From a virus (Duplodnaviria; Heunggongvirae; Uroviricota; Caudoviricetes), in IMG/VR virus record IMGVR_UViG_2534682157_000018: a stretch of 42,422 nucleotides of DNA. One strand, 5' to 3'. Made by a program: the position numbers and the translations under genes. How positions within the stretch are numbered: position 1 is the stretch's first letter; the number at the start of each line of letters is the position of its first letter. Below are positions 4,307-33,929 of this stretch, in pieces. The notes under the pieces are model-generated. The model saw only the letters and a program-made list of their open reading frames with translations, was not told the origin of the DNA and did no database searches.

Positions 4307-4644
4307 CAGATCACCACTTCGTCAAACTGACACGAAAAATTGGTATAGGTGATATGTTCTGTCGCTGACCACGTTCGACACACCACTCTGATTTTTCTGT
4401 TAATACCCGGCGGGCGCCAAAAAAAAGATTTATAGCCTTCATGCCGGGCTAAAAATTTTTCAAATGAATCACGTTCATTCGCCTCAACTTTGAAATCACA
4501 GGTGAAAACGCGCAGAGAATGATTAAGTCCATTTGGACTTCGTTGCTCATAACCATCGCCAAATCTTACAGTTTTTATCGATGGTTTATTTTCTGTTTTC
4601 ATTCCATCCTCTGGTAACCAGTGAAATTCTTCCGTATTAGCCAC
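4306..4644 (-). CDS. M: minor tail protein M
   Basis: 112-aa ORF containing VRFGDGYEQR and C-terminal FDEVVI resembling lambda M; start may be the internal Met at about 4602. Confidence 0.75.
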   Translation of the reverse strand: MANTEEFHWLPEDGMKTENKPSIKTVRFGDGYEQRSPNGLNHSLRVFTCDFKVEANERDSFEKFLARHEGYKSFFWRPPGINRKIRVVCRTWSATEHITYTNFSCQFDEVVI

Positions 4645-7600
4645 TTAACATTCCCCCATCACGTCGCATATTTAACAGATTGCCCTGCACCCGCTGATCA
4701 ACCATCCCCATAAGTGCTTTTATTGCCTGAGGGCCAATCTCTCCATTCTGGCCGTCATTTTGAATAGTGATTTGGTATACAGGGGCATAGGTAATATCTC
4801 CGCCTCCATTACCACTTTTACTATTAATAGCTCTGACACCAAGAGAACCATCGGAAGTTCGTGTTAATGGCATAATGGCTTCCGGTCCAGCCTCACCAAA
4901 AACACCAGCCCCTCTTGCAAAAGCAAAAAATTGCGGGGAATCATAAATACCGTTCGAATACGTGTTCAATGACGGAGACTCATAAACACCGCCCTTTGCA
5001 TTCGGAATAAATTTACTAATAGCACTCCCGATAGTTCCTAAAATCCCCCCAGAAGAACTGTTACTAATGCTGTCGAAAATCCCAGTAATTGAAGCCTTTA
5101 ATGCTATTCGACTAAGATCCGAAATCACGGAAGTAGCGAAAGAACGAAAATTTGCCTTGCCTGTCGTGACAAAATCACCCAGCGCATCGGTCATTCCATC
5201 AAACATCTGAGTCGTGGTTGATTTTATCTGCTCACTGATATCCTTAGTGTCATCCAGCCAGTTATTGAATCCCTGGGAGGCACCACTAACCCAGTCTCCT
5301 GCCTGAATATCGAGCTGCTCGTTTTTCTGTCTGACAATTTCTTTTTCTCGTTCCAGAGCATCATTCAGAGCCTGCATTTTCTCCTGAAAAACATGATTTG
5401 ACATCCCACGGGATTTATCTGCATAGTCACGTTCAAGTTGCAGACGCTGATTGTTATATTCACGTTCAATCCGCAGTAATTCCTGCTGGCGTTGCTGATT
5501 TTTATCGCCAACCCCATAACCAGCAATCTGAATATCATACCCCTGTTGACGATTATCAATCGAAGCCTGCAATGAATCACGCCATGCAGCTATTTCGGCG
5601 GATTCCTTGATTAGCCTGTTATTTTTTTCAATCGCAACATTTTTCTCCATCAACGCGGTTATTTCTTCCCGGTGTAAGAGAAGCGATTTCTGATCCTGGG
5701 TTAATTTCGATGACGGTCGTGACTCCAGGTCGGCAATCTGCTGACGCCACTTAACCAGTTCCTGTTCAGAGGAACTTAATTTAACGGTTAATTCAGTTTG
5801 TGAACTTAGTAACGCATTCTGTTGATTCAGATGATCAATCATTCGTTGGGCAGCATCATCCGAATAACCTTTCGCCTTTGGTTGCTTTGGATCTTTATAA
5901 CGCTCATTTATTTGAGCGATAAAATTATTATATTCTTCCTTTGAATACTGACTCTTTAGCTTTTCCAGTTTTGCAAGTTCACTAGCTCTCTGCTGCTCCC
6001 GGGTCTGATATTGTTTTGAAAAGGCATCTGCTCTCTGTCTGAGTTCAATTCCTTCCTGTTGTCGCTTGTTGTAATCGTTTATTGATGAATTTAGGACGTC
6101 CTGAGCAATTTTTTCTGCTTGAAGTACGCCCAATTGCTGCTTTAATCGTGCCAGCCTTTTATTTTGAGCTCCGCCATCTCCAATGCCACCTAACCCGAAA
6201 ACTCCGGGTCGGGTATTTTTTCTATTTCATCAATTTGACGGAGAACATCTGAGATTTTTTGATCAAGGGAGGCCTCACGGCCAATGTCCAGCATGGAATC
6301 CCATGCCCATTTTGCGGAGTCTGCGACAGCTTTCCATGCAGTCTCAAGATAACCAAGATTTTCTTTAATCTGGTTGGTGCGCTGGATCATTGAGGATGAG
6401 TATGCTTCTGTCGCAATGCGGGCGGCCTCCTGCTGGTTCCCTTCATCCTGTAGCGCCTTAATCTGGTTATAAGTCGCAATTGTCAGAAAATGGTACTGAT
6501 CATTAAGTTTTGATATGGCACTGACAGGATCCTTTGCAATTTCATTGAAGTCATTAACCAGTTGTTCGGTTGATATTCCTGTTACTTCGCTCGTTTTTAC
6601 TATCGCTGTCGTCACTTGCTCCAGCGAACTGCTCGCTACCTTTCCCGAACGCACAAGCTGGTTTAATACTGCCGCCGCAGCGCCAGTTGTCGAATCAGCC
6701 GCATTCCCGGCACGTTGAGCTATATCGGCCAATTGCCCGCTGGTTGTCCCCAACTGATTTCCGGTAAGAATAAGAGATTTATTAAATTCGTCCTGCTCCT
6801 GAGAGCCTTTATAGTAAGCCAGTCCTAAGACCCCAACGGCTGCTGCGGCCAGGGTAAAAGGATTAATTAATCCCAGCACATAAGAACCTACACCTTTGAT
6901 CGCCGGGCCAATCCCACCGAACATATCTTTTAGCTGGCCGCCCTGCTGCATTAACACCATAAATGGCGACTGACCAGTGGACAACCCAACAACAATATCC
7001 GTCATTTGTGCAGGCAACATGCGCATAGCAAAAGCCGTTTGTTTTGCCGACATTCCGGTTTTGCTTAATTGTGATTGAGTAACCTCAAGCTCACTCCGCA
7101 TAGCACGAAGTTTTCCAGAAAGCTCCTCATACATTTCAGGAGAAAGCATCCCCTTAGCTTTTGCTTCATTGAGCTGTTTCTGTTGTTCTACCAGACGATT
7201 AAAAGCAGTTCCGACAGGATCAAGTTGAGCAATCAGACGTTGCAAAGCAACAACCTGTTCATCATGCGCTTTTGCTGCTTCTCGCTCTGCCTGAGCCTCT
7301 CCGGTAAGCTCTCGCCGTGTTTCCTGTATTTTTCGGCTATAATTCTCAAACTGAGAACCATTTATTTTCCCGGATGCAAACGCAGCATTAAGTTCATCAT
7401 GCTGTTGTTCAAGATTTCTTAGCGCCGCAGCCAGAGGGTCGATCTTGTCCAGCATTCTTTGAAAGGCCTGAGCCTGCGCTTCCTGCTGGGCGGCAGCAAG
7501 TTTTCCGGCCTTCTCGGCTTCTCTCTGCGCTTGCGCAACCCCGCTCAATTCCTCTGTGGTTTCATTAAGTTTACGGACAAGAAATTCATATTCTTCTTTA

Positions 7601-7869
7601 TCAATAAGCCCTTTATCGAAAAATTTCTTTAATTCAGAATAGCGTCGACCGACAGTATCAATTGCGGCACCAACTGGATCAATAGCTGCTTTTAATTTTG
7701 CGAGCGCGTTCTTCTCATCTTCTGTTGCCTTAGTCACTTTCCCTGCGCTATTTGCAGCAGTTTCCCCAGCCTGCGTCATTTTGACTAATGAGGAGGTCAG
7801 ATTGTCAGCATTATTTTTCGCTCCAGTGCTATCAATAATTATTGCGAGACGCGAGGTTTGCTCTGCCAT
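4637..7869 (-). pseudogene. H: tail tape measure protein (lambda H-like), read as two frames: N-part 6190..7869 and C-part 4637..6133+
   Basis: N-part has [10 protein letters not shown] (lambda H has MRMLPAQFTD from memory) and coiled-coil sequence; C-part has GEAGPEAIMPL and ends DGGMLSG. C-part frame is open upstream across the N-part stop, so the two overlap at about 6190-6230 next to a T6 run (6216-6221). Confidence 0.8.
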
Positions 7870-7889
7870 TTATTAAAACTCCTGACAAC

Positions 7890-7914
7890 AAAAAACCCAC
7901 CGCGAAGTGGGTTT
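7890..7914 (-). terminator. intrinsic terminator-like hairpin just upstream of tape measure start
   Basis: On minus strand: CCCAC-loop-GTGGG stem followed by T6, then AGGAG RBS and the tape-measure ATG. Could be an attenuator or mRNA stability element. Confidence 0.45.
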
Positions 7915-8034
7915 CAGGCGACATAATAGTAGATATAGCGATTACGAGGCCACGCAATGCTTTTCTCCAGGAGCATCATCGATTTAATTAAAGACACCAT
8001 CACATCTCTGTAACAGAGTGTACGTAATTAACAA

Positions 8035-8346
8035 CTACACACACTGCTCCTGAAAATACTGGTCATCCAGTGCAAAGATCACTGCTTCAAATTCATCGCG
8101 CTCAATCAATACCGGATGAATGGCTAAATATTCATTTATCTCTGTCAGAGATAAAGGCAAAGGCACCCCAGCCATTCCAGCATAACGTCGGGCACGGGAT
8201 ATTACCGAATAGGCGTACAACAACTCCTTAAGCACCGGGTCTATTTCTGGTTCCGGTATCGGTGGCAACCTGAGTTTTTCTCGCTTCCATCTTGCCTTTT
8301 CCCCCCTTTCTCCCCCGAACTCCGATAACCACCGCTGGGCAGCCAT
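8035..8346 (-). CDS. T: tail assembly chaperone, -1 frame extension (T-like part of G-T fusion)
   Basis: 103-aa ORF overlapping the 3' part of the G-like ORF in the -1 frame; open upstream through the slippery heptamer. Confidence 0.6.
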   Translation of the reverse strand: MAAQRWLSEFGGERGEKARWKREKLRLPPIPEPEIDPVLKELLYAYSVISRARRYAGMAGVPLPLSLTEINEYLAIHPVLIERDEFEAVIFALDDQYFQEQCV

Positions 8347-8804
8347 GGCTTTTTTATCGTATCCTGCTTCTGCTGCTCTTTACCCTGGGCGATGCTGGCT
8401 GCTTCTGCAAGGATCTGCCAGTACAACTCTGGATTCTGCTTAAGCAGCGCGATCCCTCGTTCTGCCGTATATTCCAGTGCAACCTCAACACCATTAACCA
8501 GTTCACCAACCCCTTTCCAGTCTTTCAGCAGATAACGAGCGGCATTATCAATGAGTAAATCATCAACAGAATCCACCTCGGAAACCTTTGAAATATCAAA
8601 CTCCTTCGTTCCGACGTGCAAACTGGCATCCATTTTCTCAATGTGGCGACGGATTAATGCATTACGGGAGCGATACTGATCGTTATCGCTGCTTGCCACC
8701 AACAGTTTTAACCCGTCTACAGGTTTTAAGTCCTTCATTGGCGTAAACCAGCGTTCTCCACCAATGATAATTTTCTGATTAAGAATAAACATCCATAACC
8801 TCAT
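8241..8804 (-). CDS. G: tail assembly chaperone (G-like)
   Basis: Position immediately upstream of tape measure and overlap with a -1 frame ORF; probable start at internal Met (about 8792) with GAGG RBS. Confidence 0.6.
   Translation of the reverse strand: MRLWMFILNQKIIIGGERWFTPMKDLKPVDGLKLLVASSDNDQYRSRNALIRRHIEKMDASLHVGTKEFDISKVSEVDSVDDLLIDNAARYLLKDWKGVGELVNGVEVALEYTAERGIALLKQNPELYWQILAEAASIAQGKEQQKQDTIKKPWLPSGGYRSSGEKGGKRQDGSEKNSGCHRYRNQK
8349..8355 (-). promoter_or_regulatory. programmed -1 ribosomal frameshift slippery heptamer A_AAA_AAG (G to G-T)
   Basis: Minus-strand AAAAAAG in the G frame as A AAA AAG; the T frame is open across it; same heptamer type as dnaX and tail-chaperone shifts. 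Confidence 0.6.
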
Positions 8805-8884
8805 TCAATGCGTCCCCCTGTAGGGCAGTACCACAGGAGGAATAACGGAAAATCAACTAATCGCCTCAGCACTGGCTTTTGCGA

Positions 8885-9814
8885 TCACGGCAGCCGGGGA
8901 ATTTTTTTTCTGGTTATCGTAGGTGCTTCATCTGCTGCGGTAATGCTCAATTGAACCTGGATAATGTCGCTATTACCCCCATCAGGCCATTCACCTGACA
9001 CCTGAACCTTCGGGAAACTGAAAGTGTATGCCCCCTCTCCATTCGAAAGCGTGAAGCTGAACGGAACTGTTTCTCCAGTCAGTGTTTTACTCCAGATTTC
9101 CCACGCGGCTTTAGACCATGAAAGCGTCACCGTACCGGACGGTGTAAAAGTAGTCGGAATATTTGCTCCTGCATAAGGCGAGCCAGTCCCGATACAACGC
9201 TGTGTCTGGAGTTTGTTATCGAACTGAATATCAAAACTGTCGATACAAAAACCGTTACCTCCGGCAACACCATTCAGGCTTACTGCTGAAACCTCCTTAA
9301 ACGAATAACGTAGCTTTCCTGCACTATCCACAGGTTCGCCTTTGATAAAATTCGTATCATCGGCCTTTGATTCCCAGTCCAGTCCGGCAAAGGTTACGGT
9401 CGCTGTAATATCGCCGTCGTTAGGGATCTGCATTTTCCATGAGCCAACCTGCGCTCCTCTGACGACAGAGGCAATTCCGACATCGGACGCATAGGTCGCC
9501 AGAGAAAATGTTATTCGCTCATTCCCCATTGTCAGAGAATCGCCTGACCATTCCGCGCCGAAACAGGATGCAAGAAAATCATCATGTTGACCCCAGCGAA
9601 ATTTGGTACCAACATCACCGCCGACATCCACAGTGCCAGGCGTCGCCCCCTGAGCCATCCGGGAGCCACCAATCTCATTATTTTCGCCTTTATTCTGGGT
9701 GGGTTTTACTCCCCAGCTTGTGCGTTTTAATAAACTCCAGTCACCACTTGCTGGCGTAGTGCCTGCAACCGTCTCCCGGATAAATGCCGAGATAACCTTT
9801 GCACCTGAACTCAC
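8885..9814 (-). CDS. major tail (tube) protein
   Basis: 309-aa ORF directly upstream of the G/GT pair; assignment by synteny only, not lambda V-like by sequence. Confidence 0.55.
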   Translation of the reverse strand: MSSGAKVISAFIRETVAGTTPASGDWSLLKRTSWGVKPTQNKGENNEIGGSRMAQGATPGTVDVGGDVGTKFRWGQHDDFLASCFGAEWSGDSLTMGNERITFSLATYASDVGIASVVRGAQVGSWKMQIPNDGDITATVTFAGLDWESKADDTNFIKGEPVDSAGKLRYSFKEVSAVSLNGVAGGNGFCIDSFDIQFDNKLQTQRCIGTGSPYAGANIPTTFTPSGTVTLSWSKAAWEIWSKTLTGETVPFSFTLSNGEGAYTFSFPKVQVSGEWPDGGNSDIIQVQLSITAADEAPTITRKKIPRLP

Positions 9815-9840
9815 AGGAGCCTCCTATGTCATTAATTGCG

Positions 9841-10233
9841 CTAGAGCGCGCGATATGGAATTTGAAGATTAAGCTGGAACCAGCCATTCTTTTCGCCAAC
9901 GGCTATTGAGGAAACAGCCTGGTAACTGAGACGATCGTCATCCTGAAACTCAAACAGTTCCCGCAATTTATCGGCTGTCTCAGTAATGAGTTTTGAACCA
10001 GAACCTGCGGGGACAAATAACTGAATAATGATTATCCCCGTGCGATAAACAATCGGCCCCGCGCCAATTTCATTAACTCCAGCCTGCCCGGGAATATTAC
10101 TTAACCGCGCCCAGATTAACTTACCGGAAGGATCGAACGTTGGCGCGTTCGGATACAATACGTCTTTTCCATCAATAATCGTCTGTGCCGTCATTCTGGA
10201 AATAACCGTATTTCTGATTTCAGTAAACGTCAT
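9841..10233 (-). CDS. tail terminator / tail completion protein (by position)
   Basis: 130-aa ORF between head-tail joining genes and major tail gene. Confidence 0.4.
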   Translation of the reverse strand: MTFTEIRNTVISRMTAQTIIDGKDVLYPNAPTFDPSGKLIWARLSNIPGQAGVNEIGAGPIVYRTGIIIIQLFVPAGSGSKLITETADKLRELFEFQDDDRLSYQAVSSIAVGEKNGWFQLNLQIPYRAL

Positions 10234-10610
10234 TTGTAAGCCTGTAAAACACCATGAAAAGCGTTGGCATACACGCCAGTTGGCGCTTGTTGTGAATGAC
10301 CGTTTTCAAGAGCCTCTGCATAAGGAAGGTTATTCTGGATATAAATAACTCCGTAATTTGCAGCTTTCGAAATAACCCCGATCCCACGCTGAACAGCAAT
10401 CGTACCGTTCGGATCCACGTTATCAGATATACCAAAATCGGGATGCTGTAACGACACCAGGTTGTTATTTCTGAAACGTCCGGTATCAACCGGAGCAGCA
10501 ATATCAATAGCAGTAAGAATCTGAATAGCGATGTAGCGAATCTTCAGCCCTACATCTTCCTCAATCATCCCGGCAAATATTGACGGTTCTATATCCCATG
10601 CCTTTGCCAT
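10230..10610 (-). CDS. HK97 gp10-like head-tail joining protein
   Basis: 126-aa ORF with DTGRFRNN motif typical of this family from memory; 4-nt overlap with the next gene. Confidence 0.5.
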   Translation of the reverse strand: MAKAWDIEPSIFAGMIEEDVGLKIRYIAIQILTAIDIAAPVDTGRFRNNNLVSLQHPDFGISDNVDPNGTIAVQRGIGVISKAANYGVIYIQNNLPYAEALENGHSQQAPTGVYANAFHGVLQAYK

Positions 10611-10994
10611 TTACGCTCTCCTTAACTGGATAGAGTAAACTGATGCGGAAGGATCTACACTTGCTGTAATTACCTCGTATCGTTGTAACTGCCTTGATAC
10701 AGGATCATAAATCTCAATAATATGGTCGACAGCTGGTTTATCCGTAACCTCGCATACCAGAGCGGTTAATTTAAGGTCACCATGCAAAATATTAATCCCA
10801 TCAATTCTGCCCAGCTTATAACGTGTCAACACGCCTCGCCCGGTATAGATTGCGGTGGATTCGCCGCCAGTTTCCGTCACAGGATCCCAGTGCCGGTGCG
10901 TAACGTAAGAACCAGAAAAATCACTCACGGCGTCCGCTAAATCCTCATCAAAAGCAGCGGCAACCTCTGACTGAATCTCTTCACGAAGCCCCAT
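10611..10994 (-). CDS. head-tail adaptor / head closure protein (by position)
   Basis: 127-aa ORF in the head-tail joining block. Confidence 0.45.
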   Translation of the reverse strand: MGLREEIQSEVAAAFDEDLADAVSDFSGSYVTHRHWDPVTETGGESTAIYTGRGVLTRYKLGRIDGINILHGDLKLTALVCEVTDKPAVDHIIEIYDPVSRQLQRYEVITASVDPSASVYSIQLRRA

Positions 10995-11389
10995 TATCCC
11001 CCCCTCACAACCCTGACTTGTGAGCGACTAAGTCCGTACGGTTTCAGCAGTGCTATCGCAAGCTGTAAATCGGGTTCAAGCAATGCAGTGCTGTTTGCTG
11101 GCAACTCAGAAAATGATTTCGATACACTGACCCCGTCAGCCGACACGGCTTTACTGATAACAACGCCAGAATCATTTTTCTGCTGAAACAACTTACCGAA
11201 TGAGGCAATTCTGGCTGCATATGCTCCCGCAAGTTTTACCTCTTCCGGAATACGGGATGGGTTAATTTTCAGGTTGAAGCCATTAAGCCAGGCATTAGCC
11301 ATTAAAACAGCTTTATTTTTAGCGTTCTCACTCGTCCAGGCGTTCCCAAACGCATTATCAACGTCATCACAGGTCACGTAAGTGATCAT
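10994..11389 (-). CDS. head-tail connector (gp6-like) protein
   Basis: 131-aa ORF following the capsid region; synteny. Confidence 0.45.
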   Translation of the reverse strand: MITYVTCDDVDNAFGNAWTSENAKNKAVLMANAWLNGFNLKINPSRIPEEVKLAGAYAARIASFGKLFQQKNDSGVVISKAVSADGVSVSKSFSELPANSTALLEPDLQLAIALLKPYGLSRSQVRVVRGG

Positions 11390-11392
11390 GTG

Positions 11393-11569
11393 TTACTCCT
11401 GAGTTTTCCAGCCCATAGCCTTCCAGTTGTCAACTTCATCAGGATGAACATTAGCGATAGTTGGTGCGCCGGGAAACATCTGATAATCGGTCACCATAAC
11501 CACTAACTCAATTTGCGTTTTTTGTGCGGCTTCACGCTGTGCTCTTTGCTCTTTAGTTAATCCGGCCAT
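11393..11569 (-). CDS. small hypothetical protein (58 aa) between capsid gene and head-tail genes
   Basis: ATG preceded by a G-rich RBS; translation MAGLTKEQRAQREAAQKTQIELVVMVTDYQ...; below ORF-track size cutoff. Confidence 0.3.
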   Translation of the reverse strand: MAGLTKEQRAQREAAQKTQIELVVMVTDYQMFPGAPTIANVHPDEVDNWKAMGWKTQE

Positions 11570-11580
11570 ATGCCCCCCAT

Positions 11581-11603
11581 TAAAAATGGGGCCGAAGCCC
11601 CGT
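11581..11603 (-). terminator. intrinsic terminator downstream of major capsid gene
   Basis: On minus strand: GGGGC-TTCG-GCCCC stem-loop followed by AUUUUUA, about 10 nt after the capsid stop. Confidence 0.55.
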
Positions 11604-11611
11604 TTGAATGT

Positions 11612-12751: not shown

Positions 12752-12849
12752 AATTAAATATTCCTTAAAAATTTGCGTAATTGTGAATAGATGGAGTAAT
12801 GAGCTATCCAGCCCTGACACCAGCTCCCATCCGGAAGCTGACAAATGTG

Positions 12850-13613
12850 TTAATCAACGATTGTGATACCGTCTTTCAATGCGTTTTGCTTACCTGCAAC
12901 ATCCAGTGCATCAAAAGCAGAGCGTTTCATCGTTTTCTGACCAATATCATGCTGTGTCGGACGGGAGCCGCCGCCATTGTTGCCACTGGCTTTCAGGATG
13001 TAGTCTTTCTGAGGGTAATTTTCGACAAGGAACTCCAGCGCCTCATCAAACTGCGCCAGTTCGCCAGGCTTCGCGCGGGAATAAATTTTGTTGCCGGAAG
13101 CGTCATAAGCAACGATCCTCCCTTCTTCCACTTTGAATGCCTGCCCGAAGCGGGCTTGTAATAAATCTGCCGGGATCGCAATTTTATCGGCAATATATTT
13201 TGAACCCGCAAAACTACCGCCAATCATAGAATCGTAAAGCTGCTTCTCCAGCATCTGAGAGCGTTGCTTTTCTTCATCTAATTGCTGCTGAAAATTTTTC
13301 GTAATTTCTGCCTTAACCTGGTCAACCTGTCCCGCATCGAGCAGCTTTTTCTGGTCGATTTTTGACAGCATTTCCAGTGCCTCGATCGCCTTCTTCGGGT
13401 CTTCGATAGCGGCAAACTTAGCCAGTTTTTCCTCTGCAGCTTCTTTAGCCAGGCGATGATTTTTTGCCTCGCCATTAAGCTCTGTAATTTTTTTGTCGCC
13501 AGCGGTGCATCGAAGCCAATTTCTTTACCATCGTCGTGCACATAAACTGGCAGGCCAGCAGTATCAATTTCTGCGTATTGTTTTCCGTTAATCTCGACCG
13601 TTTTCAGTTTCAT
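12850..13613 (-). pseudogene. head scaffolding protein, read in two frames (N-part from 13613, C-part to 12850)
   Basis: N-part frame MKLKTVEINGKQYAEIDTAGLPVYVHDDGKEIGFDAPLA turns into Arg-rich nonsense; the -1 frame reads a natural ...TELNGEAKNHRLAKEAAEEKLAKFAAIEDPKKAIEALEMLSKIDQKK.... Frames overlap at about 13470-13525 with a T7 run (13488-13494). Confidence 0.6.
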
Positions 13614-20643: not shown

Positions 20644-22117
20644 TTAGGAGCGCCAAAAAAAACCTGAAAACAATATAATAACAGGATAAATTTCAAGGCG
20701 ACCAAGAATCATAGCTATGCACATTAAACATTTTGCAATGTCATTAAGCACTCCGAATGACGATGCAGTAGCCCCAAAACCTAATCCCATATTATTAATA
20801 CATGCAGCCACTGTTGCAAATGATGTAAGAAAATCATATCCCATACCATTTAACACCAGTATAAAAAACACCGTGAAGAGAGTATAAAGAAAAAGAAACT
20901 CCATACAGACCTCATTACACGATCTGTAACTATCTTCCCTCCTACATTTACACTCAACAACGCTCTGGGATGAGAAAGCTGATTTATCTCGTGTTTGCTT
21001 TGTTTGAAAAGTATAAGAAATCGAAGTGACTTAATTCCACCACAAGTTGAACCTATACATCCCCCAAAGAAACTTGACAACAGCAAAAACACTATCGTGT
21101 GCGTGGGCCAACTTGCATAATCCTGCGTAGCTAAACCATTATCAGTGAGCATGGAGCTGGCAAGAAAAACGAATGAATAAAACTTCCATGCAAGTCATAC
21201 ATACCTATATGCCAGACCTGGAAAGAGGTAACAATGATCACCCCTAAGGCTATTAACAGAAAGAAACGAAGTTCAATATCTCTGATTAAAGGTTTTATCG
21301 TTTTCCTGCTAATAACAATATACCAAAGAGTGAAGTTGAAAGCCGATAGCAGGGAAAAAGAACCAGCCACCAGCTCAACCAAATAGTTATTAAAATATCC
21401 GATACTCTCGCTATGAGTTGAGAAACCACCAAGCGAAACTGTGGAAATCCCGTGACAAATAGCATCAAACAAAGGCATTCCTGCAAGTCTATAACAGACA
21501 ATACAAGCAATACCTAATAAAGAATAAGTTATCCACAGTGTCCGTGACGTATCGGCCAGGCGGGGAGTGAGTTTGTCATCCTTAAATGGCCCCGGCATTT
21601 CTGACTGATAAAGCTTTGCACCACCAATACCCAATAATGGCAATACAGCAACCGCCAGAACAATAACTCCTAAACCACCTATAAAATTTAACTGTGACCG
21701 ATAGTACAAATATTCCCGAGGTAATGAACTAACATCATCAATTACAGTTGCTCCTGTTGTTGTTATTCCAGAAACCCCTTCAAACAGAGCATCAATGAAC
21801 GTTAAATTAAGTTCTGAGTCAATCCATAAAGGGAATGCACTAATAACAGAAAACAAAATCCAAAACATTACAATTATAATAAACCCATCACGGGTACGTA
21901 ATTGAATGCCAGATTTCTTAGTTGTATACCACGCTCCGCCACCAATGCAAAAAAATATAACGAAAGTTATAAAGAAAACGAACAGGCTTTTTTCTTTATA
22001 AAACAATGCTACAACCATTGGTGGCAACATTGAAAGACTATAGAGCCAAACCAGGAACCCACACATATGAGTAACAACTCTTACATGAGATGTATTCATA
22101 TCTAAATATTCTTTCAA
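20644..22117 (-). pseudogene. trkG: TrkH/TrkG-family potassium uptake protein, read in three frames
   Basis: N-part 21131..22117 is TrkG-like; fragments 20850..21152 (GGCIGSTCGGIKSLRF...) and 20644..20904 (...GRLEIYPVIILFSGFFWRS) continue it in shifted frames; an A5 run (21165-21169) lies at the first junction and a T3-C-T5-C-T3 tract at the second (20887-20897, near 20900). Confidence 0.7.
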
Positions 22118-22236: not shown

Positions 22237-22701
22237 TTACTTTAAACACTGCTCGGTTATGTATTGCTGAGCACCTTCAAGTTGGGCCTGCATCATTACC
22301 AGTCGTTCCCGGAGGGTGAAATAATCCCGTTCAGCGGTGTCTGCCAGTCGGGGGGAGGCTGCATTATCCACGCCGGAGGCGGTGGTGGCTTCACGCACTG
22401 ACTGACAGACTGCTTTGATGTGCAACCGACGACGACCAGCGGCAACATCATCACGCAGAACATCATTTTCAGCTTTCGCATCAGCTAACTCCTTCGTGTA
22501 TTTTGCATCGAGCGCAGCAACATCACGCTGACGCATCTGCATGTCAGTAATTGCCGCGTTCGCCAGCTTCAGTTCTTTGGCATTTTTGTCGCGCTGGGCT
22601 TTATAGGTAATGGCGTTATCACGGTAATGATTAACAGCCCATGACAGGCAGACGATGATGCAGATAACCAGAGCGGAGATAATCGCGGTTACTCTGTTCA
22701 T
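22237..22701 (-). CDS. Rz: spanin inner-membrane subunit Rz
   Basis: Translation [41 protein letters not shown]... is near-identical to lambda Rz from memory; ATGA overlap with endolysin stop. Confidence 0.85.
22296..22481 (-). CDS. Rz1: spanin outer-membrane lipoprotein subunit Rz1 (embedded in Rz, +1 frame)
   Basis: 61-aa [27 protein letters not shown]... with lipobox and proline-rich region; fully inside Rz. Confidence 0.8.
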
Positions 22702-24636: not shown

Positions 24637-25224
24637 TTTTCCTCACATATGTCATATAGTAAAGGATTATATATACCGTTGTTTTGGACGCTCAAACAGC
24701 GAATCAGATCAAATAAAACGCACATTTGTTAACATTTACACAAAGTCTGCGTGGGATATTCTGAAAGAATATCCATAATGTGGAGAGAATCTATTGAAGT
24801 GCATGGTGCCGGGTGCCTCCCGGTGAACAAAATGTTCGTGATACCTGTCGGCGACAGAAAAGGTTAATGGTATCACCCCACCGCACAGGGGGATTCACCA
24901 TGCAGGAGTTTTCTTAGCAAACTCACTGCGCGCCCGGCAACTCCCAACCACATAAAATGCGGAGTTTGTGGTATTTATGCATATAACTCGCAGGAATTAT
25001 CTTAAAAAACTGATGTCGATCCGGATTAAAAAGAAGCAGGTCATCATCAGATGACTGGAAAAAAGGAAACAAAAAATACTCATCATACAGTTTTGATTGC
25101 AGGGATGAGCCTGCTATGCACAATATGCAGAATATAAGCAAGATAAAAATATGCAGGCATATTATTTCGGATTTTGTTATTAACACAACCTTTTTAATAA
25201 TCATTTGGCATACAATAAACCAGC

Positions 25225-25599: not shown

Positions 25600-25679
25600 A
25601 CGATGTCCATGTCTGCAATCCGCCTCGCGATACAGCTTTGCGAAGCATAGCAAAATTGAAGCAGTTTATACGTAAGAAA

Positions 25680-26222: not shown

Positions 26223-26509
26223 AAATGACCTTTCTTTCTCCAGATTTCTTGTGTGCGAAAAACCCCTTCAGCATGCATCAGGCGCAATTCTTCTTTGGTG
26301 TAATCGCTGGTTTTTACCCGCCCGTCGATTAGATCGTGGCATGAGCTACAGGCTATCGCCGCCTGCATATCGTGTGGTTTTGTCGCTGTTCCGCACGTCC
26401 CCGCCAGCCTGTAATGCGCCAGCACAGAGGTTTCGGGATTGTGATTGCAGTAGCCAGGGATTCTGATCTGGCACATCTGGCCTTTAGCCGCTTTACGTAA
26501 ATTCACCAT
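26219..26509 (-). CDS. YbcO-like (DUF1364) putative nuclease
   Basis: 96-aa ORF with CQIRIPGYCNHNPETSVLAHYR and Cys/His cluster resembling DLP12 YbcO from memory. Confidence 0.65.
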   Translation of the reverse strand: MVNLRKAAKGQMCQIRIPGYCNHNPETSVLAHYRLAGTCGTATKPHDMQAAIACSSCHDLIDGRVKTSDYTKEELRLMHAEGVFRTQEIWRKKGHL

Positions 26510-27108
26510 TACGCAAACTCCAGTAGTTGTGCGGCCACATTTTCAACTTCCTCCTGAGAGGAGAATTTACGGAACAGAATCCAGTTCCACAGCACATTCA
26601 GTACAGATTTATAAACCTGCTGAAACTCGACTTCGTCCATATTCGCAAAAGCGATGGATTTTGCCCGACGCCCACGGCTACCGTCCGGATAAAAATGTTC
26701 GGTGTAAAATCCAGCCTGAATGGTTACCCACTCGCGAAAAGCCTCAAACGACTTTAGCAATGCCGTATCCCGGGTTCTGCGTGTCGCAACTGTGTTCAGA
26801 TATTGCTCTGCGGCATCACTCAGGGCTGGCGTGTGTTCCCGACCAACTGATTCGCACAGGTAATCAACGAAACCAGACAGCAGTTCTCGTTCGCGAGGCG
26901 TGATCGCCCCACCGACCGGAGTCCAGTAATCGAATCCCAGTTGCAGGAGTTTGAAAAAACGCTTGTGGAATGCGTAGTTACGCACACGCTTAAAGTCTGC
27001 GTGTATCCACTCACCTATTTTGATTTGATGCAGAAAATCGCAACTCTCCGGCGTCGCCGGGAGAAGTAAACCAGAAGAAGTTTGTTTGACCAGTTGTATA
27101 TGCGCCAT
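26509..27108 (-). CDS. nin-region protein (DUF1367-like)
   Basis: 199-aa ORF with 4-nt coupling to the downstream gene; family from memory only. Confidence 0.45.
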   Translation of the reverse strand: MAHIQLVKQTSSGLLLPATPESCDFLHQIKIGEWIHADFKRVRNYAFHKRFFKLLQLGFDYWTPVGGAITPRERELLSGFVDYLCESVGREHTPALSDAAEQYLNTVATRRTRDTALLKSFEAFREWVTIQAGFYTEHFYPDGSRGRRAKSIAFANMDEVEFQQVYKSVLNVLWNWILFRKFSSQEEVENVAAQLLEFA

Positions 27109-27574
27109 TTCTCAATCTCTCGATGGCGCAGTGCAGCAGATGCCAGTTGTTCAGGCTGACGTATAAAGTATAAATAAACTGGTTCCAGTGTAAAGCCCCC
27201 ACCTTAATGGAATAAAAACCAAACAACAGATTGCTGGGATACAAACAACGCTTATTATTAAAAGCGGTTAAACAAATTAAATTTTAATGTTATGCAAATC
27301 TACCAGATCACCATAATATCTCATTTGAAAACCACTGAAATAACAACCCTATCAGGATTAATCATATTAAGGTGAGTAAATATGGAAAACAACAAATCTG
27401 CACATTACGCTCCTTTTTTATCTGTAATACTTTTTGTTTTATGCTGTGCGTGGGCATTATTTTTATAAAAATATTTACAGATAAAATAAACCCGCCAAAG
27501 CTGGTTAAGTGTGGGTGCGTTGAGGATGCATAATACATCAGAGGTGGCGAGGGATTTCTCCCTCGCCCGGTCTC

Positions 27575-27787
27575 TTACTCCTCAGGTTCGTAAGCTGTGA
27601 AGACAGCGGCCTCCGTCTGCCCGGTTCGGATTCGTACCTCGCAGAGGTCTTTCCTCGTTACCAGTGCCGTCACAATGACGGTTAAACAGATGACGATCAG
27701 GGCGATTAACATCGCCTTTTGCTGCTTTATAGCCTGCTTCTCCTTGCCTTTCGGCACGTAAGAGGCTAACCTACATGTGCAAAGCAT
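27575..27787 (-). CDS. hokD: Hok-family type I toxin (HokD/RelF-like core), maximal ORF with N-terminal extension
   Basis: C-terminal 45 aa MLIALIVICLTVIVTALVTRKDLCEVRIRTGQTEAAVFTAYEPEE is near-identical to E. coli HokD/RelF from memory; the codon where I recall the HokD start Met is ATA here; an in-frame ATG at 27787 has a GAGG 8 nt upstream. Confidence 0.8.
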   Translation of the reverse strand: MLCTCRLASYVPKGKEKQAIKQQKAMLIALIVICLTVIVTALVTRKDLCEVRIRTGQTEAAVFTAYEPEE

Positions 27788-27941
27788 GAAATTGGCCTCA
27801 GATTAATGTTAAGCGTCTTGCCGGACGCGTAATGTTAACTGGGGCTTTTCTCTATCTGCCTTTGGTGTTCATGCCCGAGGCAGATAGCCTCAAGCACCCG
27901 CAGCAATTCTACTTAACTCCCGTCACCTCGCCAATATAAAA

Positions 27942-28031
27942 TCAATCAGAAAGGCGATCCATAAGAACAACAGCAAGACAATAAATTGCTATTACAGCAG
28001 CAATAGCCAGCGCACATTTGAGAACCAGCAC
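27942..28031 (-). CDS. candidate small hydrophobic peptide (29 aa)
   Basis: AGGAGG 5 nt upstream of GTG start; translation (M)LVLKCALAIAAVIAIYCLAVVLMDRLSD is one predicted TM helix plus an acidic tail; below ORF-track cutoff. Confidence 0.35.
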   Translation of the reverse strand: MLVLKCALAIAAVIAIYCLAVVLMDRLSD

Positions 28032-28356
28032 GACAACCTCCTGTATTGGACGCACACCAGTCCTGATAAATATGAGGCTGTCTCGTCAGTGATTCAATAC
28101 AACTATTGGGTATAGTTTATCTATTTTTCTTTGGCAATGGAACACAACAGCCAAACATAACCAACACTTCTTCAGATGTATTAAGTCAGGCCCCAACCAG
28201 CATTTTGAGTAAGCAGTTCACTCAAATATGACTATCTGATTTGAGCGACGTGCGAACATTTACGATAGCTTCACTATGATTGGTACATTCTGCAATCTCT
28301 TTGTCTCAGAAAGTCGAAAGTAGCTTAAGCTATATTATCAAGAGGATAATCATCAC

Positions 28357-28389
28357 ATTGAAGGTCGATACGTTACCTTCAATGTGACA
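28357..28389 (-). other. 11-bp perfect inverted repeat about 10 nt downstream of the NTPase stop
   Basis: CACATTGAAGG-N11-CCTTCAATGTG; no clean U-tract on the minus strand, so it may be a stability or regulatory hairpin rather than a terminator. Confidence 0.35.
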
Positions 28390-28398
28390 ATCTATTTA

Positions 28399-30655
28399 TT
28401 ATTGAATTTGCAGGTTTGTACGTAAGGAACCTGTAGATTCCTCATATAACTTAGATATATAATTAGACATATCATGGTTACTTCGTACTTTTTTATTGAA
28501 TTTTTTCAGGTACTTATCAACCGTAGTGCTAAGTAGCCCTGAGTCGTCTGTAACGTGAGTTATCCCTAAATTAATCAAAACACCTAATTTATTTTTTTCC
28601 ACTAAGCTATCAAATGCGGATTTATCCCCGAGCTCATTCAGTGTTGATGCTATGAAGAAACGTGCATAATCAATATGTTCACCAATTTCCTCATATTGTT
28701 CAATTTGAACTGACAAGTCTTCCAAGGCAGATTTGAAAAAATCATATGCGTAATTGTTACTTAAACACTTTGTGAAAATACAAAGAAGAGCTACTGGTGA
28801 AAACTCCTTCAGCGGGATGTCGGTATTTCCCTTGAGAATATCAACATATAATTTACCTGCATCTATATATGATAAAAAGACTCCCCTCGTTATTTTTTTA
28901 TACGGAGTTAGATATGAAGCCAAATAAAAAGAACCGTTATAAAATAACCTTAAAAATCTTGTTTTATCGTTACTAGGTTTAAGTTCATTAATTTTATCAA
29001 TAAGATATTCATTGTCTCTTAACAAACCAAAATAGAAGAAATAACTATTTGCCCAATAAATATCATAAATATTATCATTTATGTCTATTAGGCCACGCTT
29101 CCTAAGTCCTTCAGCGTAAAAATACTCCATGAATGATCTGTGTAGAAATGAGAACGTATTACTTCTAACATTAACTGTTGTTACTTCACTGCGATAAATT
29201 AGTCTTTTGAAAAGTTTGTCCTCATCAACATTCAAGTTTCTTTTGGCCAAATAATTTAAAAACATGTCCTGCACTTCTGAAATTGATATGCAGTTTAGAG
29301 AGTTATCCATCATAAATATCGCAATTTCTACTAATATATTACTTATTACATCATATTCTGTTTGCGATAATAATCCCTTAGATGTATCCCATCGTCCCAA
29401 TACTATCTCACTGTATTTTGAGTATAGTTCTGTCATTGTAGATGGTAATTCTTTAATCTCATCAGAGAGTATTCTTGCCAGAAGAATAGCGCTCACTGGA
29501 GTCCTGGGAATGAACTTAAATAGTGGTGTTTTTCTATACCATTTTTAAGTTTATTTGTTATTTTAATGTCATTGCAGATTTTATCTACAAAGTCGATTAT
29601 TTGACCTGTGCTAAGTGGTATTATCGAGTATCTTGCAAACATCTGATCGATAACTTCATAGTCCTGAAGAGAATCCATAATTCTTGAAGCAACTAGTAAT
29701 CGAATTTTATCATTCCTGGATACTTTCTCTACAATGTCCCTGAAATTGTTTTGCCTTTCCTCAAGTGATTCCTTTACTTCATCCACCGAATCAACAATTA
29801 ATAAAATATTCCCATCATGTTGTATTTTGTACTTACTTAACACACTTTGTATTATATTTTCAACATTAAGTTTTTTTCTAGAACATCCTTGTATTGACAA
29901 AATACTGGAAGGATGTAGTCTTTTTCGTAAGAATATTCTTCTTTTATTTTTCTAATTAACTGTTTCAGCAAAGTACTTTTCCCAGAGCCAACGGTTCCCT
30001 CTAAAAAAATAAATCTCTCGGCTCTCACAACACTATACAGTTTTAACGGCCTGTGTCTGCGTTTTTTATGATCTTCCTTGCTTACATATCTATCAATAAG
30101 GTTATTTATGCCAACACTACCAAAAAAAGAGCTTTCAGGTGTATCACTTATAGTTTGCAATGTATCTGTTAAGTATTGTTCATAATTAATGGATTCGAAA
30201 TCCCAAAACTCTGGGTAATATTTACTGATTAAAGAACATATTTTTTCACCCTCTATAAATTTTATATTTGTAGATTTGAATTTCAAGTAAATTTTTTCTT
30301 GAGCATTATTTGAGATCGATGAATTAGTAATAACCCAAATTTCATTCAAATGTATGTTCTTAGAGCCAGAAGAAATAAAGCGTGGATATAATTGACACTC
30401 TTCTATTTGTCGTTCAACCTCACTATTTGACTGAATTATCTTTCCAACTTTACAAATAACACCAATATATATTTCCTCGTCTAATGCCTCATCTCGTTTA
30501 ATTATGACAAAATCAGCACCTTTTTCTGATGGTCCTTGCTTATATTCAACATGTGTAACAGTCGGCAAACGTGGTAGAAGCGCTCTTAGCACTGGATGGA
30601 AATCATCAACCTCACGTTGCAATGATTCTATTTTTCTTAAGTATTCTGGTTTCAT
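28399..30655 (-). pseudogene. NACHT-type STAND NTPase with N-terminal Mrr-like (PD-(D/E)xK) domain, read in three frames (29852..30655, 29493..29900, 28399..29496)
   Basis: Walker A GTVGSGKST at the end of the first ORF; Walker B LLIVDSVDE and LLVASR motif in the second; N-terminal GADFVII...EIYIGVICK resembles an Mrr catalytic core; junctions at T7 (29871-29877) and T5 (29529-29533); visibly AT-rich. Confidence 0.65.
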
Positions 30656-30682
30656 TTGTTTACCTTAAACAGTATCCAAAAA

Positions 30683-30721
30683 AATCATTTTATATAACAA
30701 TCATATTTCATACAATGTCAA
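30683..30721 (-). promoter_or_regulatory. candidate sigma70 promoter for the NTPase gene
   Basis: Minus strand TTGACA, then 17-19 nt, then TGTTATATA (extended -10-like), about 30 nt upstream of an AAGG RBS and the start at 30655. Confidence 0.35.
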
Positions 30722-30756
30722 CTATTAGACTCTTTTTCAACATTATAAACCTATTA

Positions 30757-31101
30757 TCAAAGACTAAGGCGACGGATTTCTCCGTCAGGTAATGACCAGA
30801 TAAGGTCAGGATCAACCACAACCGGTTTCTTCACCTTTGCCCTTGATAGTTTTTTGCGGGCGTTTTGCCAGTCTTTACGAACCTGTTCTGAGGGAAATAA
30901 CCCGTAACCAGAGTTGTATACATCACCGCTCGCAACCAATTCTCTGGCAAGAAGGTTCATCAGATATCTTGTCGCACCTGTCTTAGCTTCCAGTTGTCGT
31001 AACGTCTCGCGCCCACTCTGGCGCACGAGTTCAACAACCTGCCCTTTAATTTTTTCCCGCCCTTCTTGTGTAAATACTTTTGCCATAAGCGCCTCCGGCA
31101 A
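30757..31101 (-). CDS. hypothetical protein (114 aa), possibly DNA-binding
   Basis: ORF immediately after the 270-aa gene; basic C-terminal tail. Confidence 0.4.
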   Translation of the reverse strand: MPEALMAKVFTQEGREKIKGQVVELVRQSGRETLRQLEAKTGATRYLMNLLARELVASGDVYNSGYGLFPSEQVRKDWQNARKKLSRAKVKKPVVVDPDLIWSLPDGEIRRLSL

Positions 31102-31914
31102 TCACTTTTCCGATACAATACGGCGGGAAGAATCCGTAATCTGTCGAACAATATCCCGGTGCTTGTTCAGCTCCCGCAGCGCGGCGCAGACTCGCTCCCA
31201 CTTCTGGACATGACTTTTCGCCCGACGCAATTCGCGGTTTGCCATATGCAGCGATGGTAAAACCAGGTCATCCGCTCGCGTTTCAGTAAACGATGGCAAC
31301 GACTGCACAATATCAGCCACAGTTTCTGTTTTAATATCTTCCTGTGTTGCAGCTTCCTGTACTGGTAACGCAACACCTGCTGGCTGAGGAAAGGCTTTAC
31401 CATCGGTTTCCGCTACCGATTCAACTTTCGGCTCTGCTGGTAAATTATCACCCGGTATGCAGTAACGAAATTTACCGTTCTGATTAATGCGAATCAGACG
31501 ACCTTTGCTGATAGCCATTGCCAGCGTTGAAGCCACTTTGCGTGATGTGGTACCGAACAATGTAGCCAACTCATCAGCCGTTTGTGGTCCGCGTTGTTCA
31601 ATCGTCGCGGTTAAATCGCACTCTGAGATTTTCGCTACTGTTGCTGTGGTGGTTTCTTCCGGCAGTTCTGCCTGCGCTGGCTGTTCCTGCTGAACGTTGT
31701 TATCAGCCACACGCCAGGTGTACGCGCTTTTATCAACAAAACCAGCCTTTTTCAGTTCCCATAGTTCGTTCAGCACTTCTTCACGACTGATATCAAGTCG
31801 CGCAGCAAGTTCTATGGATGTGGCTTTTCCCATTGCTTTCAGTGCGTCAAAAACAGTCTCCATTAAATTTTTCTCCCGGTAAAAATTACTTCGCAATTCC
31901 TGGCTGGACGACAT
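31102..31914 (-). CDS. hypothetical protein with N-terminal winged-HTH-like segment (possible YdaW-like)
   Basis: 270-aa ORF; likely start at internal Met ([30 protein letters not shown]..., about 31863); follows the DnaC-like gene. Confidence 0.4.
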
Positions 31915-32632
31915 TCGGACGCCAGCTCTCCCAGTTAAAATTCACCCATCGCCCGCCGTTCATGGTCATGCGATCCATAATCCGCTCGCCGAGCAATGTT
32001 TTCATGGCCTCATAGTTCAGGTTTGTCAGCATCCCCACGCTGCGCATCGACGCTGTCCGGCGATCAACAATCTGGTGCAGTACCACCTGCTCGTTTTTCG
32101 TCTCGCGCTGAATGCCAATTTCATCAAGAACCAGCAGATCCACTTCGCACAGTTCCCGCAAAAATTTTTCGCCTGACTGCCCATCGTCATAGCTGGCGTG
32201 CAGGGCACTCATAACATCAGCCACGGTAACCACAATCACTGTCTGACCGTCTTTCAGCAGGTGATTCCCGATAGCTGCCGCTAAGTGGTTCTTCCCGGTA
32301 CCAGGTTTTCCGCTGAACGCAAAATTTGTACACCCGGTCATCAGTTCATCAGCGATGGATTTCGCCTGACTCAACGCGTATCGCTGCCCTTCGTTCTGCA
32401 CCTGGTAATTCGAAAACGAGCATTTGCGGTGCAATGGCTGGATGCCAGAGCGATTCAGAATTTTTTCCACCCGCAACTGACGATTCTGACGGTTGATCTC
32501 CTCACAACGTTTCTGGCCTTCGGAAAGTTGCCACTCGCGCCACTCCGCTACCGTTTTGAATGGGGCGGTTACATGTGGCGGGGCCAGTCTACGGATACGT
32601 TCAAGAATGCCGCCTGCCGCAATATTTTTCAT
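31886..32632 (-). CDS. ydaV: DnaC-like replication protein (helicase loader)
   Basis: 248-aa ORF with [18 protein letters not shown] and DLLVLDEIG motifs; strong similarity to E. coli DnaC from memory. Confidence 0.8.
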
Positions 32633-32638
32633 GGTCAG

Positions 32639-33444
32639 TTACCCCCTGAAGCCTGGCGGGATCGCACTATCCGGTAACGAGACGGTGTTAACCTGTCGGA
32701 GTAACGTCTCAGGTCGAACACCTTTTGGCGCGAACAAGCCCTGGTATTCATTGGCGATGCTGTGTCGAATCACCTGCTCAGGTGAAAAACCCTGCTGGCG
32801 GAATTTTTCCAGCTCCCGTATCGCCCCGTTAGCACCCTGCTCCGTTCGAATCGGTTTACGCAATGCCTGGCGAAATTCAACCCACTCACGCCAAAGCGAG
32901 ACAGAAATCCAGTTCGGCAAAGCAATATCCAGAGGGTCAAACTTTTTGACACCTCGATTCCCCCGGGGGGGATTTAGGGGGGGATCTTTTTTAGATCTTT
33001 ATCTGTATCTTTATTAGTTGCCTTTGTGTTGACATCATGTTCAAACACCACTTCAACATCTGTTTGAACACCTGTTAAATTTCTCTCTTGTTTTGTTTGA
33101 ACATCTGCTTCCTTTCTGCTTCTTCTGGCCTGAACAGATGCTTTTCCTGCGGCTGATTTTTTGGTTAATTTTTCCCTGACTGATGCCAGATCTTCCTCAA
33201 TCCGAAGATGCACCCATTCCTCGCCGTTATCGCAAAAAAACTCCTGCAAGGATGGTTCAACATCAGCCCATCGCTCGTTAGTCAGACGGGCAATTTTTGC
33301 CAGCCTGTTTTTAGGTATTGGCTTTCCTGTTTGCCAGTAATTGAACATCAGCAACAAATACGCACCATGCTCCTCTGCTGACAAATGCATGGTGTCAGCC
33401 AGGTAATCAGCTATGTACAGTTGCATGTATGGTAATGCGGCCAT
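32639..33444 (-). pseudogene. ydaU: replication initiation protein (YdaU/DUF1376-like N-domain + DnaT-like C-domain), read in two frames
   Basis: N-part 32974..33495 (likely start MAALPYMQLYIADYL at about 33444) and C-part 32639..32920; C-part frame is open upstream across the N-part stop; junction lies in a C5/G7/G7/T6 tract (32960-32992). Confidence 0.5.
33038..33107. repeat. three copies of a 10-bp element TGTTTGAACA / TGTTCAAACA inside the replication gene (iteron-like)
   Basis: TGTTCAAACA at about 33038, TGTTTGAACA at about 33062 and 33098. Confidence 0.3.
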
Positions 33445-33517
33445 AATTGCCCCGTATGATGCTGCCCGGTTGCTTAGAATAAGCACAAACAGCATGGAAA
33501 CTTTTGCTTAATGAACA

Positions 33518-33929
33518 ATGACAGAATCGTCGGAAGACCCGCCGCCGCTGAAATGCGCTTTCCGGTAAACGGCCTGGACTGCATCATCATGCGCATCAAT
33601 TGCCGTACTTAACGCTTCCTGCGCCGCCAGTAATGCACGGCGTTCCAGGGTATCGAAGATGCAGAGTCGGTGACGCAGCTCGCGCGGAAGGATTGCCAGA
33701 ACCGCAGGGATCAGTTTCTGAATTTTTCCCTTTGCGCTTTCGTTTCACCTTTCAACCAACGGTGATAGATATTCTGCTGATTGTTCCAGTCCTTGCCTGG
33801 TACCAGGGGCAATTCGCCGCCCCCCTGGCGCAGATATTCTTCAGTAATGGCATTGGCTACCCATGCCTGCCCTTTTTCAGCAGCCAGGGCTAACAACACT
33901 GATTCGATGTGCTCATGCTTGATTTTCAT
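33518..33929 (-). pseudogene. ydaT: YdaT-like protein, frame-interrupted
   Basis: N-part MKIKHEHIESVLLALAAEKGQAWVANAITEEYLRQGGGELPLVPGKDWNNQQNIYHRWLKGE matches K-12 YdaT from memory; after a T5 run (33723-33727) the -1 frame continues ...QKLIPAVLAI... as in my recalled YdaT; stop at about 33518. Confidence 0.7.

Follow-up and report, generated by a model that had tools for sequence, protein, structure and literature searches.

Do the broken genes of a Rac-type prophage in Escherichia coli STEC_DG131-3 record the decay of the element, or do they reflect how it was sequenced? The DNA in question is a stretch of 42,422 nucleotides (the window) catalogued as virus record IMGVR_UViG_2534682157_000018. 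An earlier note, made from its letters without database searches, had listed eight reading-frame breaks in seven genes, each at a homopolymer of five to seven bases, and had favored systematic homopolymer error over pseudogenization. We conclude, with a probability of about 0.82, that the broken genes are mostly undercounts of A/T runs in a 454 consensus sequence and not gene decay and that the frameshift in the scaffold gene is real.

The window corresponds to positions ~2 to 42423 of the 154-kb contig AFDV01000042.1 (GCA_000225125.2) of STEC_DG131-3. Loci taken from that contig (L009, L025, and L047) matched the window at 100% identity with zero gaps, and the fragment proteins of the window carry the STEC_DG131-3 accessions EGW92324/25/44/54/55/60/61. 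The prophage is a Rac-type lambdoid element of E. coli located at ttcA, and its genes run in the order tail gene J, tape measure, head genes, terminase, trkG, lysis genes, NACHT NTPase, ydaUVT, recET, and intR, followed by ttcA. Its G+C content is 33 to 48%, and it is thus richer in A/T than the 50% G+C genome. Strain DG131 is a sheep isolate of serotype O174:H8 (accession AFDV00000000; Steyert et al. 2012, PMC3491183). It was sequenced on the 454 Titanium FLX platform and assembled with Celera 6.0, and no other platform is named (PMC3491183).

One-base contractions in A/T runs break the prophage genes

The window was initially aligned with the complete genomes Jnd12, CFSAN061771, LR-60, M160133, and M8, and every length difference from these five was one base absent from the window within a run of A or T. 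Sites are named here by the base that precedes the run, such that 6215 denotes the T6 at 6216 to 6221. All eight listed breaks were present, alignment to close relatives indicated that each was one base missing from an A/T homopolymer, and the run lengths of five to seven were confirmed. The list was incomplete, as there were 12 contractions in total and four had gone unlisted (Table 1). A/T runs of ≥5 nucleotides (nt) occupied only 3.0% of the window, and the placement of 11 of the 12 indels within them was therefore far from chance (P ~2e-16).

Adding one base per site, the check that the note had proposed, restored open reading frames (ORFs) of 1077 amino acids (aa) for the tape measure, 254 for the scaffold, 485 for trkG, 752 for the NACHT NTPase, 285 for ydaU, and 140 for ydaT, in agreement with the single-base deletions predicted for ydaT and trkG. 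One base likewise extended the tail tube to 320 aa. The repaired proteins differed from those of CFSAN061771 by 0 to 1 aa, the exception being the tape measure, with 15 differences. The recE (866 aa), portal (468 aa), and terminase (433 aa) genes were intact, as had been stated. We conclude that the breaks share one kind of lesion, the loss of a single base from an A/T homopolymer.

The nearest relative carries the longer runs

The nearest relative of the window was CP027328.1 (GCA_003017885.1), assembled here from three overlapping pieces (L066, L075, and L029) that together cover window positions 2852 to 42422 (39.6 kb). The reliability of this and the other comparison assemblies was judged by internal consistency only. 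Only three isolated substitutions (21366, 21368, and 23224) and one patch of eight single-nucleotide polymorphisms in Rz separated CP027328.1 from the window. Moreover, the window was one base short at 11 A/T runs (6215, 8901, 20889, 21164, 25066, 28123, 29528, 29870, 32986, 33722, and 35981), such that CP027328.1 carried the longer allele at 11 of the 12 sites and at seven of the eight breaks originally listed, the exception being 13487 in the scaffold gene. No A/T run was longer in the window than in CP027328.1, and a difference in the opposite direction was seen only once, at a G7 for which CP027328.1 has G6. CP027328.1 has intact copies of the tape measure (1077 aa), tail tube (320 aa), trkG (485 aa), NACHT (752 aa), and ydaT (140 aa) genes. 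When ten close relatives were taken together, 10 deletions, 0 insertions, and 14 substitutions were specific to the window over 39,571 positions, with the Rz patch accounting for 8 of the 14 (two-sided sign test on the deletions, p = 0.002).

If the contractions were all, or nearly all, genuine, the Rac prophage of DG131 would be decaying by replication slippage, perhaps following a mutator episode. The family does show homopolymer frameshifts: the scaffold T7 was on 310 contigs, the T8 of the tail tube on ≥1000, and the T7 of NACHT on ≥38, and three complete genomes had the tape measure T6. Such lesions would be tolerated in a prophage, where selection is relaxed. In the 39.6 kb shared with CP027328.1, however, 11 one-base deletions stood against only 4 substitution events. 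Even where mismatch repair is defective, E. coli gains ~6 to 7 substitutions for every small indel (6.02 base-pair substitutions versus 0.85 indels per coding sequence; 4847 substitutions versus 790 indels; PMC8510543), and the counts in the window are therefore incompatible even with a mutator history. Moreover, the window-specific changes relative to the ten close relatives included no insertions, insertion sequence (IS) elements, nonsense codons, or larger deletions. The same rate scaled to the whole genome would imply over a thousand frameshifts, and the data come from 454 sequencing only. We consider genuine decay quite improbable.

The formal symmetry of a pairwise comparison, and nothing else, would equally allow the window to be correct and the other genomes to overcall each run by one base. 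The longer alleles were found in 15 to 34 independent loci per site, among drafts, complete genomes, and metagenomes, and they keep seven ORFs open at the lengths annotated for homologues, such that overcalling elsewhere is barely conceivable. We conclude that most of the shorter runs are peculiar to the DG131 assembly.

The Rz patch consists of 8 substitutions in 80 bp (22577 to 22656) that set the window apart from CP027328.1, L064, and L067, which are near identical to it elsewhere. Because the exact Rz protein of the window recurs on 20 other contigs, the patch looks like a natural allele, a short recombination or gene conversion tract from another lambdoid prophage, and not an error. The substitutions of the window resemble ordinary clustered polymorphism, their methylation-motif context having been checked by eye only.

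The contractions have the signature of pyrosequencing error

In pyrosequencing, light intensity serves as the measure of run length, and its power to tell one length from the next falls off in longer runs. We infer that the reads are ambiguous at the runs in question. Long runs, chiefly of A and T, would be undercalled often enough for the consensus to settle one base short. Most of the 12 contractions would be consensus errors of this kind, including five to seven of the eight listed breaks, and the underlying genes would be intact in the real strain, with the scaffold T7 at 13487 inherited with the prophage lineage as a genuine frameshift allele.

Consistent with such a mechanism, the frequency of the 10 window-specific contractions varied with true A/T run length, being 1/368 at 4 nt, 0/144 at 5 nt, 5/64 (8%) at 6 nt, 3/20 (15%) at 7 nt, and 1/6 (17%) at ≥8 nt. 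None of the 12 G/C runs of ≥6 nt was contracted, and the contrast between A/T and G/C runs was by itself not significant (Fisher p = 0.59). An asymmetry between T and A runs on the window strand (7 versus 2 for runs of ≥6 nt) was set aside as too weak. Homopolymer errors of 454 data are known to survive into the assembled consensus and create artificial frameshifts, with a bias to A/T and to longer runs (Luo et al. 2012, PMC3277595). Thus, the case for undercounting is built on the platform, on where the indels lie, the direction they take, and how their frequency depends on run length, and on their absence from near-identical genomes.

A Logan assembly of the read set SRR058421 had 0 mismatches to the window over 3.4 kb, shared the T6 in ydaU and the T5 in ydaT, and was apparently built from the reads of DG131 itself. 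Three more runs were contracted in it, two from G7 to G6 and one from A6 to A5. As the two assemblies differ, one read set, apparently the strain's own, yields different run lengths depending on the assembler.

Table 1. The 12 one-base contractions in the window (coordinates are window positions)
Feature	Gene	Run in window	Strand	Remark
Tape measure	4637-7869	T6, 6216-6221	minus	split into 559 + 498 aa
Tail tube, 3′ end	~8852-9814	T8, 8902-8909	minus	last codons affected; 309 aa instead of 320; not listed earlier
Scaffold/DUF6651	12850-13613	T7, 13488-13494	minus	split into 111 + 173 aa
trkG, downstream break	20644-22099	A5, 20890-20894	minus	
trkG, upstream break		A5, 21165-21169	minus	
Intergenic		A3, 25067-25069		A4 in all others; within AAAAAAGGAAACAAAAAA; not listed earlier
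Intergenic, hokD/NACHT gene		T5, 28124-28128		not listed earlier
NACHT NTPase, second (downstream) break	28399-30655	T5, 29529-29533	minus	
NACHT NTPase, first (upstream) break		T7, 29871-29877	minus	
ydaU	32639-33495	T6, 32987-32992	minus	
ydaT	33508-33929	T5, 33723-33727	minus	
Intergenic, upstream of sieB		T6, 35982-35987		not listed earlier

The scaffold frameshift is inherited

The short allele was shared by descent with relatives at 13487. At 6215, 8901, 29870, and 35981 it occurred elsewhere and not in the nearest haplotype, and at the other seven sites it was not shared by descent. The T7 at 13487 was common to CP027328.1 (L066) and to the drafts L064, L065, L067, L070, and L071, which had no idiosyncratic homopolymer differences, and the position is annotated as frameshifted in three RefSeq complete genomes. 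The 173-aa C-terminal scaffold fragment was found on 310 contigs and in 559 index blocks. Because the allele is common to CP027328.1, to clean drafts, and to RefSeq genomes annotated as frameshifted, we conclude that the scaffold T7 is a genuine inherited frameshift.

On the coding strand, the scaffold T7 reads ACA AAA AAA and forms an in-register A AAA AAA heptamer on which a −1 slip returns to the native frame. The T7 allele is common in prophages with otherwise intact structural genes, and the scaffold frameshift may therefore be leaky.

The breaks in trkG, ydaT, and ydaU and the second break in NACHT are confined largely to DG131

Alleles were surveyed in complete genomes with concatenated 75- to 79-mers, the alignments of which crossed junctions and spacers and reported the best place per record only, such that exact matches could be hidden. 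From these queries we used the matches at 13487 and 20889 and the near-absence of the others, and single-site queries were redone for 6215, 32986, and 21164. The window alleles at 25066, 28123, 29528, and 33722 were not seen in complete genomes, with the limit that concatenated queries may hide exact matches.

At the downstream trkG break (20889), A6 was present in 31 of 37 other loci, all close relatives among them. A5 was found elsewhere only in ECZP248, where rzpD is frameshifted too, and in five short Logan contigs with further homopolymer contractions; ECZP248 was also the one complete-genome record with the window allele. At the upstream break (21164), A6 was present in all clean relatives, the window allele was found in 0 of 1553 complete-genome records, and the 322-aa N-terminal fragment of trkG was confined to the source contig. 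Both trkG breaks are probably 454 undercalls. The five Logan contigs, which carry both trkG breaks, were considered as support for a real allele and were rejected on account of their additional A/T-run contractions.

At the second NACHT break (29528), all 19 other loci had T6, some of them from lineages that have the first break in common with the window, and the 345-aa C-terminal fragment was found on the source contig only. At 33722 in ydaT, T6 was present in 20 of 21 other loci, the sole other T5 being that of the Logan assembly SRR058421. Each of these short runs, too, is probably an undercall. The same can be said of two intergenic sites, as the A3 at 25066 was A4 in 18 of 18 other loci and is probably a 454 error, and the T5 at 28123 was T6 in 18 of 18 other loci, CP027328.1 included, and is probably a 454 undercall.

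The ydaU break (32986) lies in a homopolymer cluster, C5-G7-ATTTA-G7-ATC-T6 at 32965 to 32992, on which assemblies of the same or near-identical strains disagree. The window reads G7/G7/T6, SRR058421 reads G6/G6/T6 (net −3, in frame, 284 aa), CP027328.1 reads G7/G6/T7 and is frameshifted (173 aa), and most genomes read G7/G7/T7. T7 was present in 15 of 16 other loci, and the window allele was found in 0 of 716 full-length complete-genome matches. The cluster is an error hot spot for several platforms, and the T6 in ydaU is probably a 454 undercall. We conclude that artifact is strongly indicated for both trkG breaks, the second NACHT break, and ydaT and is well supported for ydaU.

Four sites are naturally polymorphic

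At 6215 in the tape measure gene, T7 was present in CP027328.1, L064, and L067, with 0 substitutions in the region. T6 was found in 3 of 702 complete genomes, in other haplotypes annotated as frameshifted. Its carriers were WP5-S17-ESBL-10 and cS100a, which represent one prophage lineage (Japan and Malawi), and 6EVA; in each it was the sole frameshift in 32 kb, and their haplotypes differed from that of the window by 25 to 27 substitutions. The 559-aa tape measure fragment was found on 5 contigs and the 498-aa fragment on 13. The T6 of the window is probably a 454 undercall at a naturally polymorphic site.

A similar pattern was seen at the remaining three sites. In the tail tube gene (8901), T9 was present in CP027328.1, L064, and L067, and T8 was present in CFSAN061771, LR-60, and M160133, where it is annotated as frameshifted; T7 also occurred among relatives, and the 309-aa product was found on at least 1000 contigs. 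The T8 form has an alternative C-terminal tail in which only about the last ten residues are altered, and both forms may be functional. At the first NACHT break (29870), 84 index blocks and at least 38 contigs (CP061185.1 among them) contained the 267-aa N-terminal fragment, and T7 was present in many drafts, in a haplotype two substitutions away from that of the window; the gene of CP027328.1 had 0 substitutions relative to the window, T8, and an intact frame of 752 aa. At 35981, T7 was present in 19 of 20 other loci, including CP027328.1, and T6 also occurred in draft L032. As the long allele is the one carried by the nearest haplotype, the short run in DG131 is more likely an undercall at all four sites, with genuine recurrent slippage the less likely alternative. 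Readings of 6215, 8901, and 29870 as real because shared, and of 29870 as inherited, were dropped, as CP027328.1 is nearest and carries the long allele. We conclude that the contraction is probably an artifact at both 6215 (tape measure) and 29870 (first NACHT break).

Might the short alleles instead be both real and functional, with A runs in the mRNA acting as slippery sites for −1 ribosomal frameshifting or transcriptional slippage and with run length tuning expression in the manner of a contingency locus? The scaffold T7 (A AAA AAA) and the NACHT T7 (A AAA AAC) do form heptamers in the X XXY YYZ register of the upstream frame from which a −1 shift regains the native frame, and several tracts vary repeatedly by lineage (e.g., T7/T8/T9 at 8901). 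However, the register follows automatically from deleting one A of an in-frame A8, most relatives carry the in-frame allele and need no frameshift for expression, most of the short alleles are unique to one 454 assembly, and three contractions are intergenic. A tuning function is highly improbable.

A related proposal, and a very improbable one, is that some short alleles are real in DG131 and that prophage genes are repeatedly switched off by slippage at hot spots in the A/T tracts of Rac-type prophages. The tracts that may act in this way are the tape measure T6/T7, the tail tube T7/T8/T9, the scaffold T7/T8, and the NACHT T7/T8. Silencing of this kind could be incomplete if −1 frameshifting or transcriptional slippage occurred on in-register A heptamers. 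If the proposal were true, slippage hot spots would give a domesticated prophage and its NACHT defense-like gene a rudimentary form of contingency control.

Limits of the undercount explanation

Several observations weigh against undercounting as the account of the broken genes. The scaffold break at 13487 is demonstrably real, and short alleles at 6215, 8901, 29870, and 35981 exist in independent, apparently clean assemblies of other lineages. The per-site calls rest on assembly comparison, and the assignment of SRR058421 to DG131 rests on sequence identity only. The implied density of ~1 error per 4 kb, with 7 of ~60 genes affected, is more than would be expected of a 454 assembly at 50% G+C, although the prophage itself is richer in A/T. 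Finally, the core flank that was compared is 1.5 kb (ttcA and part of dbpA); it is the same as in CP027328.1 and holds only one A/T run of ≥6 nt. As truncated products are found elsewhere, a blanket reading in which all twelve contractions are errors is ruled out. Thus, the earlier preference for systematic homopolymer error over pseudogenization holds for most of the breaks, given a 454-only source, longer runs in CP027328.1 at seven of eight, and lesions that are all −1 in A/T runs, and it fails for the scaffold.

Homopolymer errors in public assemblies

Many idiosyncratic one-base deletions were present in L063 (JACWBW010000004.1), L068, L045/L046 (LR890661.1 and LR890262.1), and L036 (CP034784.1), although these assemblies are complete or near complete. 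Several of those in L063 and L068 lie at CCTGG/CCAGG (Dcm) motifs, e.g., at the window equivalents of 11687, 13622, 15007, 17384, and 22055, and those in L045/L046 fall in C runs. These deletions look like long-read assembly error. LR890661.1 and LR890262.1 (L045/L046) were considered as support for the tape measure T6 and the scaffold T7 and were rejected, as they differ from each other in extra indels of C, T, and A runs. Error-prone assemblies reproduce the same contractions by their own error and, if anything, mark the tracts as error prone. Because error of the long-read type occurs in public genomes, we conclude that a shared frameshift is weak evidence of reality.

The NACHT gene, intR, and a frame change in the tail module

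The repaired NACHT protein (752 aa) has a NACHT P-loop domain at residues 214 to 331 and a NACHT C-terminal helical domain, NCH1, at residues 576 to 741. Its gene lies between hokD and a DUF977 gene, and PADLOC matches were weak (HerA and mad8). The Rac NACHT gene looks like a bacterial NLR-type candidate defense gene. The gene is broken at varied places in public genomes, by the T7 on at least 38 contigs and by other splits in M160133, L074, and L079.

At the other end of the prophage, intR (41187 to 42422) is an intact ORF of 411 aa in the window, and the protein-collection gene calls for the source contig record only a 201-aa C-terminal product. The short record is a gene-calling quirk and not a lesion.

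A frame change of another kind lies between the tail tube and tape measure genes, where window positions 8035 to 8804 hold two overlapping minus-strand ORFs, 8241 to 8804 (YdaY family) and 8035 to 8346 (−1 frame). The sequence A AAA AAG at 8349 to 8355, which is in the X XXY YYZ register of the upstream frame, was identical in 32 of the 32 loci that hold the region. Moreover, the downstream ORF has ATA in place of ATG in 25 of 32 loci and so has no start codon of its own. We conclude that 8349 to 8355 is probably the site of a programmed −1 frameshift of the tail assembly chaperone, of the lambda G/GT type. This frame change is genuine and should not be polished or repaired away.

Consequences for databases and prophage comparisons

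The STEC_DG131-3 draft fragments at least five to seven intact prophage genes, namely, trkG, the NACHT NTPase, ydaU, ydaT, and probably the tape measure. The resulting EGW-series fragments listed above stand in protein databases as spurious short families, and pseudogene counts, pan-genomes, and claims of prophage decay drawn from this assembly or from sister 454-only assemblies would be inflated. That a frameshift is shared with public assemblies is no proof that it is real, as several noisy long-read assemblies repeat the same contractions; conversely, one error-like break, that of the scaffold, is a real and widespread allele. The value of the finding is mainly practical, and its biological interest is low.

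Comparison with known systems

We conclude that the case is a known artifact on a known kind of prophage. It resembles described 454 homopolymer errors (PMC3277595) in its 454-only data, its single-base changes in A/T runs, a frequency that rises with run length, and adjacent split ORFs. It differs from typical 454 errors in that only undercalls occur, ~1 per 4 kb is near the top of the expected range of densities, and one of the twelve contractions is no error.

The window also resembles Rac-type prophages with frameshift pseudogenes, as the scaffold T7 is inherited and widespread and relatives have partial or frameshifted ynaK, tolA-like, DUF977, and tail tube genes. Unlike the lesions of the window, which are all −1 with substitutions nearly nil, the decay of those relatives includes IS insertions, truncations, and internal stops. 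Like phase-variable tracts, the runs vary in length by lineage (T7/T8/T9 at 8901, T6/T7 at 6215, and T7/T8 at 13487 and 29870). Unlike such tracts, however, they are short (6 to 9 nt) and lie in prophage structural and accessory genes, and there was no evidence of within-strain switching. Finally, the tail module of the window resembles lambda G/GT in having a probable frame change at an A-rich slippery heptamer between overlapping ORFs (8349 to 8355). The eight listed breaks are unlike lambda G/GT in being unconserved, and the relatives have a single in-frame ORF at those sites.

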